Positions 6,071 to 9,852 of a stretch of 14,300 nucleotides of DNA are shown in pieces. Positions within the stretch are counted from its first letter, which is position 1. Each line of letters begins with the position of its first letter. The notes below the pieces were generated by a model. It saw only the letters and a program-made list of their open reading frames with translations, had not been told where the DNA came from and searched no databases. The DNA comes from a virus, in the UHGV virus genome UHGV-0153413; one strand, given 5' to 3'. The position numbers and the translations under genes are program-made.

Positions 6071-7447
6071 TCATACGTCAGCCCCTTGTGCATATCGTCT
6101 GCCACGCGCAGCGGGCGCATTTGATGCTGTGCAAATCTGTCTGGCTTCATCCTGGTCACATGCAACAAAGTGTCCGTTGCAGAACCGCTGGTAAACCGTA
6201 CCAAGCGAGCCAAAACGGTTTTTTGTCACAATGATTTCAGCAAATGGTGCGGCGCTACTGTTCTCGTCATATACCGCTTCCCGATAGAGCATGATGATTG
6301 AGTCTGCGTCCTGTTCAATGCTTCCTGAATCACGCAAATCTGCGTTTGTCGGGCGTTTGTTTGGTCGCTTCTCAACATCGCGCGAAAGCTGACTCAGGGA
6401 GATAACTGGCGTTTTCAGGTCTTTCGCCATCGCCTTCAGGCTTCCGGAGATGTGAGCAATTGCGAGGTCGTTGCGGTCTGCTTTCGGCTTCTCAATCAGG
6501 CCAAGATAATCCGCCATGATGAGTGACAGGTTTGGATTTTCCTGTTTGTGCCGTTCTGCGATTGAGCGTATTTCTTCGACCGATAACCGCGAGGCATCGA
6601 CTACCCATACATCCAAATCTGCAAGCTGACTCATGCCGTTAGCAACACGCGCCCAGCCTTCGTCATCCATCGATGCAGGATTTCGCAGCACGCTAACCGA
6701 CATCCTCCCGGCGTTGGCAATGCTTCGCTCTGCAATCTGCAATGCGCTCATTTCCATTGAGAAAATCAATACCCCGCGCCGGACGTCAGAACCAGGAATA
6801 ACGCGGCTTGCCACGCCTTCGGCAATCTTCAGAGCCAGTTCGGTTTTCCCCATACCAGGACGAGCAGCGATTATCACCAGGTCTTCCGCGTTCATCCCTC
6901 CGGTGATGGCATCAAGTTCTTCGATTCCGGTCTTCAGGGTATCTGACTCTTCTCCGTTCCTCAGACGCCTGTCAAGCGTGTCGGTGTAGTCAGTGATGAT
7001 TTCCCCTAACCGTACAGGTTTAACCTCGTCACGGGGCTTTCTGATGGCTGAGAGACGCTTTACAAGCTCATCCATCGCCTGACTCGATGCGTCGATGGTT
7101 CCGCTCTGAATTGGTTCACGCATTTCATCCATGATTTCCAGCACCAGACGGCGGTGATAGTTATCCGCGACCATTCCGGCATATCCCTTCAGGTTTGCGG
7201 CACTCGGGCAGTTCTTACTGGTCATCAGGATTGACGTGAAATGCTCCTCTCCGCACGCCTCGGCAACCATCAGCGCATCGATTAGGTTTCTGTTTCTCGC
7301 CTGCTTGCGGATAACCTCGAAGGCTTTCCGGTAGAGCGGAATTGAAAACGCTTCCGGCTCCAGTGTTGCCAGAACGTCGCTGGCGGTTGGAGTTAATCCA
7401 CCAATCAGCAGGCCACCGATAACGCTCGCTTCGATATCCTGTCTCAT
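6071..7447 (-). CDS. DnaB-family replicative DNA helicase (P22 gene 12-like, replaces lambda P)
   Basis: 458-aa ORF with Walker A GMGKT ([15 protein letters not shown]) and DnaB-type downstream motifs. Start overlaps the O-like stop (ATGA). Confidence 0.9.
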
Positions 7448-8265
7448 GCAATCCCCCTGTCTGCAAACTTCCCTTCCCGAACTCCCGTTAACGAGTCTTC
7501 CCTCAGCAGGTAATCAAAATCTGCCGTCCAGCCCGTGTCGTTGTCTCCGAAGTAAAACGGCTTGGCCTGATGCACAAACGCCCTGACATACGCTCTGAAA
7601 CCGTCCACGTTTGGCGTTTTCAGTTGCGGGATGATTTTCTTCAGGCGGCGTTTGCGTTTCTCGTTGACCGCAACAGCATGTGGAAGTCTGTCACCGACTT
7701 CGGTGTTGTAGGCGTTCAGGAAGGATTCATAGTCGATTCGTTCTGCCTTGCGACGTTCAGGTTTAACCTGCCCATCGCCGCCCCCGTTAGGGGGTAAGGG
7801 GGTATTTGTATTTATTGTCTTTTGTATATTGTCTTTTGTGTTTAGCTGACTTGGCTTATACCCATTAGCCGACTTGGCTAATGTTTTATTAGCTGTTTTA
7901 GCTAATGTTAAGCTGTCCTGGCTAATCCACTGAGAAACCACCTTGTTCACTCCGATTTTCACGCCATCAGCAATGAGGAATTTACGCTCGATAAGCTGGC
8001 GCTTGGCAGCGCAAACATGAGTGTGATGAATACCTGTCATGGCTGCTATCTGCGTGTTTGTGAGTCGATCCATCGGCTTATTGAATCCGTATGTCTTGCG
8101 CATGATAGCGAGCATCACCTTCAGCTGCCGGACGGTTAAATCAGCCATCAGCAGACTGTCGGTAATCTCGTTAGCAACGCGCATGAAACCATCTTCGGTA
8201 TCTGCCACGCGATGCTCCACGACCTCCAGTTGAGGCCTGTAATCAGCTAACTTAACGACGCCCAT
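7444..8265 (-). CDS. Replication initiator (lambda O / P22 gene 18 family)
   Basis: 273-aa ORF. N-terminal domain [33 protein letters not shown] resembles the lambda O N-terminus. The linker region is encoded by the iterons. Confidence 0.85.
7801..7928. repeat. Origin of replication inside the O-like gene: four iterons plus an AT-rich region
   Basis: Four spaced repeats, each an internal dyad: ttagctgacttggcttata (7842-7860), ttagccgacttggctaatg (7865-7883), ttagctgttttagctaatg (7889-7907), ttaagctgtcctggctaatcc (7908-7928). AT-rich tract 7801-7841 with repeated gtcttttgt. Same architecture as lambda ori. Confidence 0.7.
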
Positions 8266-8413
8266 GTTTCACTCCTGCTTTGGCTAGTCTGTAAACACCA
8301 ACAAGGCGCTCTGCGAACGCCCTGTTATTTGCTGCGGCTACCACTAATCCCTCAGGTGAATCAGGGTGTCGAATCTCTTCTTTTTCCTGGTATTTCTTAC
8401 GACGTTTTGTCAT
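8252..8413 (-). CDS. Small basic ORF (53 aa) between cII and the O-like gene
   Basis: Hand-translated (below the ORF-track cut-off): ATG 8413..8411 with RBS GGAG at 5-nt spacing, [53 protein letters not shown]. Its stop overlaps the O-like start by 14 nt. Confidence 0.35.
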   Translation of the reverse strand: MTKRRKKYQEKEEIRHPDSPEGLVVAAANNRAFAERLVGVYRLAKAGVKHGRR

Positions 8414-8422
8414 AATTACTCC

Positions 8423-8492
8423 CGTGGATTGATCCAGTCTTTCTACATTAGGCCTCGAAGAATTCGCCGTTCTTCGGGGCTTTTTCTTTTGT
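8423..8492 (+). ncRNA. oop: Candidate oop-like antisense RNA (pO with extended -10; terminator inside the cII 3' end)
   Basis: Plus strand tTGtCATAAT extended -10 (8408-8416), then about 70 nt later a hairpin cctcgaagaa/ttcttcgggg (8452-8480) followed by cTTTTTcTTTT. Antisense to the cII 3' end, as for lambda oop. Confidence 0.45.
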
Positions 8493-8726
8493 CAGCATTC
8501 TGGCTACTTGCTTAGCCAGTTCCGCCAACTCCTCGTCTTCAACACCCCATTCAAGAACAGCCAGAAGCATTCCCATTTTGGGGATGAAGCTGTCTTTCCA
8601 TCGCGAAATTTGCGATTCATTAACCCCTAACGCGTCGGCAACCTTTCGCTGACCACGTACAGCAATTCGATTCAGGATGTTGCTTGTAATTGCATTCGCT
8701 TTCTTGCGAGTACTTGTAAGTTGCAT
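8448..8726 (-). CDS. cII: Transcriptional activator CII
   Basis: ESQISRWKDSFIPKMGMLLAVLEWGVEDEELAELAKQVARML closely matches lambda CII (QISRWK...SMLLAVLEWGV). ATG 8726..8724 preceded by AAGGAAATACTTACAT, as in lambda. The 121-aa track ORF is an upstream extension. Confidence 0.85.
   Translation of the reverse strand: MQLTSTRKKANAITSNILNRIAVRGQRKVADALGVNESQISRWKDSFIPKMGMLLAVLEWGVEDEELAELAKQVARMLTKEKAPKNGEFFEA
8681..8714 (+). promoter_or_regulatory. Candidate pRE with CII-binding direct repeats TTGC-N6-TTGC
   Basis: TTGCttgtaaTTGC at 8681-8694, inside the cII 5' coding region on the opposite strand, followed 14 nt later by a weak -10-like AGTACT. Orientation is toward cI through cro. Confidence 0.4.
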
Positions 8727-8784
8727 ATGTAAGTATTTCCTTAACAAATAAGAAGTTATGCGCATCAACTTGTGCGCGTTGTAT

Positions 8785-8828
8785 TCCCGCATTTCGGCGG
8801 GAATGAGGACCATGACTGTTAAAGAGCG
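8785..8828 (-). promoter_or_regulatory. nutR (boxA CGCTCTTTAA plus boxB hairpin) between cro and cII
   Basis: Minus strand CGCTCTTTAAcagtcatggtcctcatTCCCGCCGAAATGCGGGA. The boxB hairpin (6-bp stem UCCCGC/GCGGGA) is identical to the one in nutL. Confidence 0.6.
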
Positions 8829-9135: not shown

Positions 9136-9852
9136 ATGGAAAATAAAAAATCACTGACGACAGAACAGCTCGAAGACGCTAAGCGGCTTAAGGCTTTGTA
9201 TGAGTCAAAAAAGAAAGAATTGGGAATAACCCAATACTCAATCGCTGATGAACTGGGTATCACCCAAGGAGCGGTAGGGCATTATCTTAATGGCAGAAAC
9301 GCGCTAAACGTTGAGGTTGCATCTGGTTTTGCACGACTGTTGCAAGTCTCAATTGCTGATTTTAGCCAGTCAATTGCTGCCAAGGTTGCAGAACAGGCAG
9401 AAAGCCTTAAGAGCGATGCCAACGTAAGGTATGCAGGGGAATACAGAGCAGGAAAGAGGTATCCGGTGTTAAGCAGTATCCAGGCTGGCTCGTGGTGTGA
9501 AGCATGCGAACCATACACCATTAAAGACATAGATGTTTGGCTTGAGTCTGACGCGCATATTCAAGGTAATGCGTTTTGGCTTAAAGTGGAAGGTGATTCA
9601 ATGACGGCACCGGTTGGGTTAAGCATTCCAGAGGGAACATTCGTTCTTTTCGATACCGGAAGGGAGGCGATCAACGGCAGCTTGGTCATAGCAAAACTTT
9701 CTGACTCTAACGAAGCAACATTCAAGAAGCTGATAATCGACGGCGGAAATAAATACCTCAAGGGACTTAATCCTGCATGGCCTCTCGTGCCAATCAATGG
9801 AAACTGCAAGATTATAGGCGTTGCAATTGAGACAAAACTAAGGCTGGTTTGA
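9136..9852 (+). CDS. cI: CI repressor (HTH-XRE N-domain plus S24 LexA-like autopeptidase C-domain)
   Basis: 238-aa ORF. HTH region QYSIADELGITQGAVGHYLNG, Ala-Gly (SIQAGSW) candidate cleavage site, catalytic Ser in GDSM and Lys in FKKL. Divergent from cro across the operators. Confidence 0.9.
   Translation: MENKKSLTTEQLEDAKRLKALYESKKKELGITQYSIADELGITQGAVGHYLNGRNALNVEVASGFARLLQVSIADFSQSIAAKVAEQAESLKSDANVRYAGEYRAGKRYPVLSSIQAGSWCEACEPYTIKDIDVWLESDAHIQGNAFWLKVEGDSMTAPVGLSIPEGTFVLFDTGREAINGSLVIAKLSDSNEATFKKLIIDGGNKYLKGLNPAWPLVPINGNCKIIGVAIETKLRLV

Follow-up and report, generated by a model that had tools for sequence, protein, structure and literature searches.

The 14,300-nucleotide (nt) stretch of the UHGV virus genome UHGV-0153413 analysed here (the window, to which all coordinates refer) carries on its minus strand a small open reading frame (ORF) between a cII-type activator gene and an O-like replication initiator gene. 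This ORF, called ORF53 in the following, runs from 8413 to 8252 (162 nt) and encodes 53 amino acids, beginning with MTKRRKKYQEK. The cII-type gene upstream of it (8448-8726, minus strand) is a P22 c1-like allele matching Pfam Phage_CII over its full length with an expectation value (E) of 1.7e-42, and the initiator downstream (7444-8265, minus strand) matches Phage_rep_O with E 5.8e-33. Between the cII stop codon (8450-8448) and the initiator ATG (8265-8263) there are 182 nt (8266-8447), compared to 32 nt in lambda, where cII ends at 38653 and O starts at 38686. ORF53 is preceded by the Shine-Dalgarno sequence GGGAG (8423-8419, minus strand), which is placed 5 nt 5' of the ATG and is homologous to that of lambda gene O. 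Its TAA stop codon (8254-8252) sits 14 nt within the initiator gene, an arrangement suited to translational coupling, and the ribosome-binding site (RBS) of the initiator itself, AGGAG (8276-8272), is located inside ORF53. An earlier reading of the DNA made from the letters alone (the sequence-only reading) had described the extra ORF, its RBS, the overlap of its stop with the initiator start and the position of its ATG inside the -10 of a predicted antisense promoter, pO, and all of these sequence statements proved correct.

The start of ORF53 lies within DNA shared with lambda. A 33-bp sequence conserved among lambdoid phages bears the 5' end of oop and the -10 of pO (PMC3349717), and in lambda this -10 overlaps the start codon of O (PMC3985674, PMC3349717). 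A match to the consensus of this boundary, ACTGGATCaATCcACAGGAGTaATTATGaCAAA, was found at 8406-8438 (signals on both strands), with one mismatch to the consensus quoted in PMC3349717 when read from 8438 to 8406. Within it lie the oop 5' end and the pO -10, as well as the RBS and ATG from which O is translated in lambda and ORF53 in the window. The record of Sf6 labels it as 'bsq5 boundary sequence'. The window sequence ...ACTGGATCAATCCACGGGAGTAATTATGACAAAA aligns base for base with lambda ...ACTGGATCTATCAACAGGAGTCATTATGACAAAT, that is, with the RBS and start of gene O. By this homology the start of ORF53 is the ancestral O start within the pO/oop boundary. The boundary ATG is the start codon of O itself in lambda, and the ClpX degron makes up the first 11 residues of that protein. 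In the window the same ATG belongs to ORF53, the initiator begins 149 nt later and its N-terminal peptide differs from that of lambda O.

The predicted pO -10, CATAAT (8411-8416, plus strand), lies over the ORF53 start codon, as CAT at 8411-8413 is its first half. Together with the upstream TG (8408-8409) it forms TGTCATAAT (8408-8416, plus strand), placed by alignment to lambda pO and identical to the -10 and upstream TG of lambda. We compared 23 diverse loci from phages and prophages of Escherichia, Salmonella, Edwardsiella, Citrobacter, Enterobacter, Yokenella, Serratia, Rahnella, Brenneria and others, and a -10-like hexamer was present at this position in 22 of them, even where the ATG was shifted by 3 nt. 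The -35 is much weaker here (CTGGTA, agreeing at 3/6 positions, with an 18-nt spacer) than in lambda (TTGAGT), and the upstream TG may compensate for this. A simple sigma-70 consensus scan called no promoter at the pO position, where the -35 is poor and the strength of the promoter is uncertain.

The sequence-only reading had suggested that ORF53 could be a new regulator. The novelty did not hold, as the ORF is already catalogued and annotated. The protein matches PHROG 1331 ('unknown function') over residues 1-53 of 53 (E 1.4e-37), and it is 100% identical in amino acid sequence to HK97 gp53 and Sf6 gp42 and 94% identical to ES18 gp58; further named members of the family are ST104 ORF27 and epsilon34 gp49. 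All of these share the position between cII and the initiator and the 14-nt overlap. Compared to HK97, the cII allele upstream in the window is of P22/Sf6 type and not of HK97 type, but otherwise nothing of substance differs. Hayes et al. 2012 published the layout "cII-oop-orf-O-P", named the HK97 gp53 homologue and stated that lambda 'is naturally missing' orf (PMC3349717). Since the family has been catalogued as PHROG 1331 and HK97 gp53, and the slot between oop and O has been described (PMC3349717), ORF53 is a re-discovery and not a new gene. In the literature searched we found no functional study of HK97 gp53 or of P22 orf48, an ORF discussed below, which was mentioned only within cloned replication regions. 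The cII-oop-O junction is among the most studied phage DNA, yet most lambdoid phages other than lambda hold an uncharacterised and highly conserved small gene there.

The identical protein occurs in dozens of phages with differing flanks. A homologue is encoded intact, and essentially at full length, in 97/97 phage records, and among the matches listed in IMG/VR it is intact in 45 of 46 loci. The sequence-only reading had regarded a lack of conservation, or interruption of the ORF in close relatives, as evidence against its idea; what we found in the relatives was an intact ORF under purifying selection. Around 10% of complete Escherichia coli genomes (571/5426) carry ORF53, with 566 of 573 matching records at a nucleotide identity of at least 99%, and among the matches listed these copies are annotated as 'hypothetical protein'. 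The carriers include Shiga toxin (Stx)-converting prophages of O157:H7. Two contigs assigned to organisms outside the enterobacteria, the metagenome-assembled genome 'Bacillota bacterium' (L008 in our set of loci) and 'Chryseobacterium sp. 18061' (L011), contain gp53 (100% and 83% identity, respectively) in lambdoid replication modules that are typical of enterobacteria, and are probably mis-binned or contaminant sequence.

The selection acting on ORF53 can be followed in its diverged copies from Cronobacter, Erwinia and Enterobacter phages, which have 75-79% amino acid identity. Against these, the ratio of nonsynonymous to synonymous substitution rates (dN/dS) was 0.07-0.16, with dS near saturation, and third codon positions held 22-29 of the 33-49 differences; two alternative frames over ORF53 gave ratios above 1. 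Indels in ORF53 were all multiples of 3, and the reading frame and length have been kept from Escherichia to Serratia, Rahnella and Brenneria. Judged by this substitution pattern, ORF53 is a genuine protein-coding gene under purifying selection. Among 21 distinct nucleotide sequences, each conserved residue in codons 12-49 is encoded by 2-6 synonymous codons, whereas synonymous variation is absent in two blocks, codons 8-11 and codons 50-55. The first of these (TAC CAG GAA AAA) is invariant, compared to polymorphism in 13/14 of the other two-fold codon columns (Fisher p = 0.0016), and in the codon table it corresponds to the block TTTTTCCTGGTA (8381-8392, plus strand), which contains the weak pO -35 position CTGGTA (8387-8392). 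The second overlaps the spacer, ATG and first codons of the initiator. Because codons 12-49 vary synonymously while both end blocks do not, the alignments indicate protein-level constraint throughout ORF53 and nucleotide-level constraint at both of its ends from the overlapping signals.

In the most diverged members of the family (L015, L017, L019, L021 and L024) the residues KYQE are replaced by FFKQ, KLKQ or FKAQ, and the same members have much better hexamers at the -35 position (TTGAAA, TTGAGT or TTGAAT). As the residue changes at codons 8-11 accompany better -35 sequences, the N-terminal tail of ORF53 and the antisense promoter co-vary. The mRNA of the window folds somewhat better than shuffled sequences (z = -3.3). 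A conserved mRNA structure inside ORF53 was considered and rejected, since synonymous sites in codons 12-49 vary freely.

ORF53 is linked to the initiator on its 3' side. It overlaps the next gene in all 23 diverse loci, by 14 nt in 21 and by 17 nt in two, and this gene is always a replication initiator; among the matches listed in IMG/VR, the overlap is 14 nt in 42/42 gp53 loci with an identified downstream initiator. The DNA-binding domains of these initiators vary, being either of the Phage_rep_O type or DnaD-like N-domains. The gene upstream of ORF53 varies as well and can be one of several cII alleles, a YdaT-type CII analogue, a KilAC protein or a beta-clamp-like protein. Two of the loci in which ORF53 follows a gene of other than cII type are L010 and L023, and in these and in L020, which likewise has such an upstream gene, the antisense -10 and/or the terminator is missing. 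Since the overlap is fixed while the upstream gene varies, and loci without cII lack parts of pO/oop, this comparison of gene orders assigns pO/oop to cII and ORF53 to the initiator end of the replication module.

The linkage extends into the initiator gene. The sequence that encodes the N-terminal decapeptide of the initiator (GVVKLADYR after the start; 8236-8265, minus strand) travels with ORF53 onto different initiator bodies, and close variants of the peptide are found at 17 of the 22 distinct initiator starts. Residues 5-10 of the peptide lie past the overlap and have been kept through synonymous change, with Ala encoded by GCT, GCA or GCG, Asp by GAT in 8 and by GAC in 8, and Arg by five different codons. 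In ES18-type initiators, residues 17-155 are 94% identical to the origin-binding domain of lambda O, but ES18 O is lambda-like in this part only: the first 16 residues, which contain the peptide linked to gp53, and the helicase-partner domain in the C-terminal third both differ from lambda. The two flanks thus switch together, with the middle being shared. Lambda O has an N-terminal ClpX degron, whose N-motif 1 is TNTAKILNFGR (PMC12723719). The initiator peptide occupies the equivalent position, with a comparable pattern (hydrophobic-hydrophobic-K-hydrophobic-x-(D/N)-(Y/F)), but the likeness of GVVKLADYR to TAKILNFGR is short, loose and judged by eye, and the peptide belongs to the initiator and not to ORF53; that it could be a counterpart of the degron is a lead. 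We also considered a programmed frameshift fusing ORF53 to the initiator, which was rejected because a TGA stop codon two codons ahead of the ATG closes the initiator frame and the 14-nt overlap lacks a slippery site.

The slot occupied by ORF53 was also compared with the type of helicase encoded downstream. In the window this is a DnaB-family replicative helicase of the P22 gp12/HK97 gp55 type (6071-7447, minus strand), which matches Pfam DnaB_C (E 9.5e-78) and has the DnaB N-terminal domain. Lambda borrows the host DnaB through P. In IMG/VR, at least 120 contigs match the boundary pattern and their downstream content was classified, the following counts being those among the matches listed. 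With gp53 in the slot, 33 contigs have a DnaB-type helicase, 3 a primase-helicase and none lambda P; with ORF48, 12 have a DnaB-type helicase, 8 a primase-helicase and again none lambda P. Where the slot is empty and the initiator opens at the boundary ATG, there is no DnaB-type helicase and no primase-helicase, and lambda P is found in 34. The slot ORF is accordingly present in 56/56 of the classified loci with a helicase of their own and in 0/34 of those with lambda P, and gp53 and ORF48 are each paired with three or four different initiator bodies. In a second survey the loci were fetched by gene (lambda P or the HK97/DnaB-type helicase) and not by boundary sequence. All 76 loci fetched by lambda P lacked a slot ORF, and the 78 classifiable loci with the HK97-type helicase had gp53 (46), a third small ORF (31) or, in one case (L281), no detected upstream ORF. 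Every locus examined that has ORF53 encodes a phage helicase and never a lambda P-type loader.

ORF48 of P22, also known from HK022 (orf48), uses the same slot and the same boundary RBS and ATG, and likewise occurs only in replicons with their own helicase. Its size and charge are close to those of ORF53 (48 amino acids and net +7, compared to 53 and +8), and it overlaps the start of the initiator (gene 18) by 8 nt instead of 14. However, it has no sequence relation to ORF53 (hhalign probability 0.1%), and P22 ORF48 (401-547 of locus L025) matches Pfam DUF2740 (E 2e-28), whereas ORF53 has no Pfam match. PHROG 1913 labels the ORF48 family as 'tail protein', which is almost certainly a mislabel because the position of ORF48 is fixed between c1 and gene 18. 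The third occupant, an ORF of PHROG 2519 with around 90 amino acids, stands directly before an initiator paired with the HK97-type DnaB helicase. It is unrelated to ORF53, longer, and ends 2 nt before the initiator without overlapping it. It was seen in L235, L231 and 31 other IMG/VR loci (the L231-L310 set), and these are the 33 apparently 'empty slot' loci of the helicase-fetched set. The initiators that follow it start with MSNTAKIYDF, close to the lambda O ClpX degron TNTAKILNF, and over its last ~35 residues the ORF shows a weak, sub-threshold likeness to the beginning of the Phage_rep_O domain (E 0.05), so to judge from the sequence it may be a remnant of an initiator N-terminus. In two further IMG/VR loci (L072 and L136) the boundary ATG opens a 214-amino-acid ORF (MTYENDKFQVLKSM...). 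This is not one of the small slot ORFs, nor can an initiator be recognised in it, and the site appears to have taken up a different kind of cargo here.

The ORF53 protein has a mass of 6.1 kDa, a net charge of +8 and an isoelectric point of 10.7. AlphaFold2 with a 32-sequence alignment gave residues 1-19 as disordered and helices at 20-29 and 31-49, and ORF53 is thus predicted to be a two-helix hairpin with a basic disordered tail; binding of nucleic acid by this tail, which the sequence-only reading had suggested, is a guess. Scans with Pfam, NCBIfam and PADLOC gave no matches to ORF53 (with PADLOC defence profiles, 0 families at E <= 1), a sequence profile search of PDB gave none either, and Foldseek searches of the model against PDB and BFVD returned only hits with E > 5. 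When 1.84 billion representative proteins were searched exhaustively with a hidden Markov model, relatives turned up in only 24 clusters, all of ~50 amino acids, with no case among them of ORF53 as a domain within a larger protein. The possibility that ORF53 is a diverged piece of lambda P or lambda O was tried by hhalign of the family against both and rejected, as no relationship was seen.

Taken together, the best overall explanation, to which we give a probability of about 0.6, is that ORF53, as a member of the HK97 gp53 family, is a genuine early gene which belongs to the initiator side of the module, is coupled to the initiator, and has an accessory role in replication in replicons that supply their own helicase. 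According to this explanation ORF53 would be transcribed from pR, after cII, and ribosomes finishing ORF53 would be delivered onto the initiator start, giving translational coupling on top of the Shine-Dalgarno sequence of the initiator itself. Such coupling is plausible from the arrangement of the two genes and rather likely. The protein would then act as an accessory replication-initiation factor in lambdoid replicons that supply their own helicase, and if so, lambda could do without ORF53 because it uses a P-type loader. A role of this kind in trans, specific to own-helicase replicons, is put forward tentatively. Slightly more doubtful is the broader proposal that gp53, P22 ORF48 and the PHROG 2519 ORF are dedicated accessory factors of own-helicase modules, acting, for example, on the stability of the initiator through the peptide at the degron position or recruiting the phage helicase. 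If this were true, it would explain why gp53 is tied both to the first ten residues of the initiator and to the type of helicase, although the DNA-binding domain between them recombines freely, and it would close a gap in the understanding of P22/HK97-type replicons. The comparative pattern, that is, the fixed overlap, the conserved N-terminal peptide of the initiator, the association with own-helicase replicons only and three non-homologous occupants of the slot, provides a concrete testable hypothesis.

Several points weigh against the explanation given above. The association with helicase type is not phylogenetically independent, as the class with no ORF is essentially one lineage (lambda O/P), and when the loci are collapsed to distinct module combinations the comparison becomes 7 versus 1 (Fisher p = 0.125). 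Since the contigs are far from independent and only this contrast is left after collapsing, the association between slot ORF and helicase could be one of historical linkage, and we regard it as suggestive. The initiator has a strong Shine-Dalgarno sequence of its own, which may make coupling dispensable. The AlphaFold2 model is of moderate confidence (mean predicted local distance difference test score, pLDDT, 68), no homologue of known function was found for ORF53 in Pfam, NCBIfam, PADLOC, PDB or the fold libraries, and the literature searched gave no experimental expression or function for any member of the family. Finally, in one IMG/VR locus (L130) the gp53 homologue is frameshifted to 22 amino acids in the A-rich run GAAAAAGAAGAG while the initiator and a DnaB-type helicase are intact, which reflects an error of sequencing or else suggests that a prophage can do without the ORF.

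Of the other explanations, the one that survives best is that ORF53 is a translated leader. The boundary inevitably brings a good RBS and an ATG, and ORF53 could then serve only to ferry ribosomes to the initiator start and to unmask its RBS, with a peptide that has no function in trans. The origin of its start codon as the O start fits this idea, as do the invariant overlap with the initiator and the presence of three unrelated ORFs in one slot, all abutting the initiator start, as if any ORF would do. However, the amino acid sequence of the whole helical core, with an invariant F33-A34-E35-R36 and a conserved GLVV, has been maintained through abundant synonymous change (dN/dS about 0.1), which is not expected of a spacer, and the initiator has its own strong AGGAG. 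We consider a role purely as leader improbable.

A little less probable still is that ORF53 is an accessory 'moron', or a host-takeover or anti-defence gene, placed in a recombination hot spot and unrelated to replication. It is small, has no known domain and lies beside a boundary sequence that promotes mosaic exchange, and the alternation of unrelated occupants at one site is typical of accessory-gene hot spots. In contrast to what such a gene would be expected to look like, ORF53 has no promoter or terminator of its own, it lies inside the pR operon, where its overlap with the initiator is fixed, and it is extremely conserved and not fast-evolving. Furthermore, among the loci surveyed it never occurs with lambda O/P replicons, although these share the boundary sequence.

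The sequence-only reading had raised a role in the lysogeny decision as one possibility and antisense control by oop as another. In this view ORF53 would be a small basic protein that modulates cII, oop or pO, or that is itself controlled by oop. This can be weighed against the antisense element. By homology to lambda oop, an oop-like antisense RNA of 65-69 nt is predicted at 8424-8492 (plus strand), covering the spacer between cII and ORF53 and the last ~40 nt of cII. Its +1, G 8424, placed by lambda homology, is 11 nt upstream of the ORF53 ATG and just outside the Shine-Dalgarno sequence. The terminator scan placed an intrinsic terminator hairpin of 14 bp at 8450-8482 (plus strand), followed by a T-run to 8492, and the RNA is predicted to fold with a minimum free energy of -27.1 kcal/mol (z = -4.7). 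In relatives with the same cII tail the stem is preserved by compensatory substitution, as 8 of the 18 stem pairs show double-sided changes. The lambda cII-oop-pO-O junction is in this way kept in the window with respect to the 33-bp boundary, the CATAAT -10 and TG on the start codon, the predicted oop start and a terminator in the 3' end of cII. The HK629 record annotates an oop RNA just upstream of its gp53 homologue, and OOP RNA has been detected in the P22-like prophage BTP1 (PMC7067206). Rfam searches at gathering and permissive thresholds gave no support, as Rfam has no oop family and the sub-threshold matches were driven by the terminator hairpin.

Antisense control of ORF53 by oop is unlikely, because the predicted RNA lies wholly upstream of the Shine-Dalgarno sequence, running away from the ORF into cII without overlapping it, and lambda oop affects cII and leaves the O-P mRNA unaffected (PMC3985674). 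According to the explanation of ORF53 as an initiator-side gene, the pO/oop element has been retained and would act as in lambda, on cII and on read-through from pR, and it would constrain the first 11 codons of ORF53 at the nucleotide level without targeting ORF53. A regulator of lysogeny could be expected from the immediate proximity of ORF53 to cII and oop, from the overlap of those 11 codons with pO and from a size similar to that of lambda CIII. However, ORF53 co-segregates with the initiator and not with cII alleles, and it is present where the upstream gene is not of cII type and parts of pO/oop are missing (L023, L010), which makes a role in the lysogeny decision quite unlikely. That ORF53 is not a gene but an ORF arising by chance, in DNA whose conservation serves pO, oop and the translation signals of the initiator, would agree with the nucleotide-level constraint at both of its ends, but it is effectively excluded by the substitution pattern, in which the middle 38 codons are free at synonymous sites while the protein is kept, and by the maintenance of frame and length across genera.

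In two loci where a YdaT-type CII analogue stands in the place of cII (L007 and L013), a strong hairpin and T-run still follow the antisense -10, wholly within an intergenic spacer of 85-90 nt, and therefore an oop-like RNA there would have no coding sequence as a target.

The ORF listing and Pfam scan further placed a cI-type repressor gene at 9136-9852 (plus strand) and cro at 9035-8835 (minus strand). For cII, the mechanical ORF list gives a start at ATG 8813 (8448-8813, minus strand, 121 amino acids), while the Pfam match and the relatives place the real start at ATG 8726 (92 amino acids). A direct-repeat search found the iterons of the replication origin, four copies of AGCYGNNYTDGCTWAT spaced 20-24 nt apart, at 7844-7926 inside the O-like gene. 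A T-rich tract at ~7800-7840 adjoins them, which is the expected lambdoid arrangement of the origin within O. Among the records matched by cII, that of 'Campylobacter phage CJLB-4' (MW057783.1, 48,361 bp) had the same identity and score as lambda at nearly the coordinates of lambda, and by its sequence it looks like lambda DNA rather than a Campylobacter phage.

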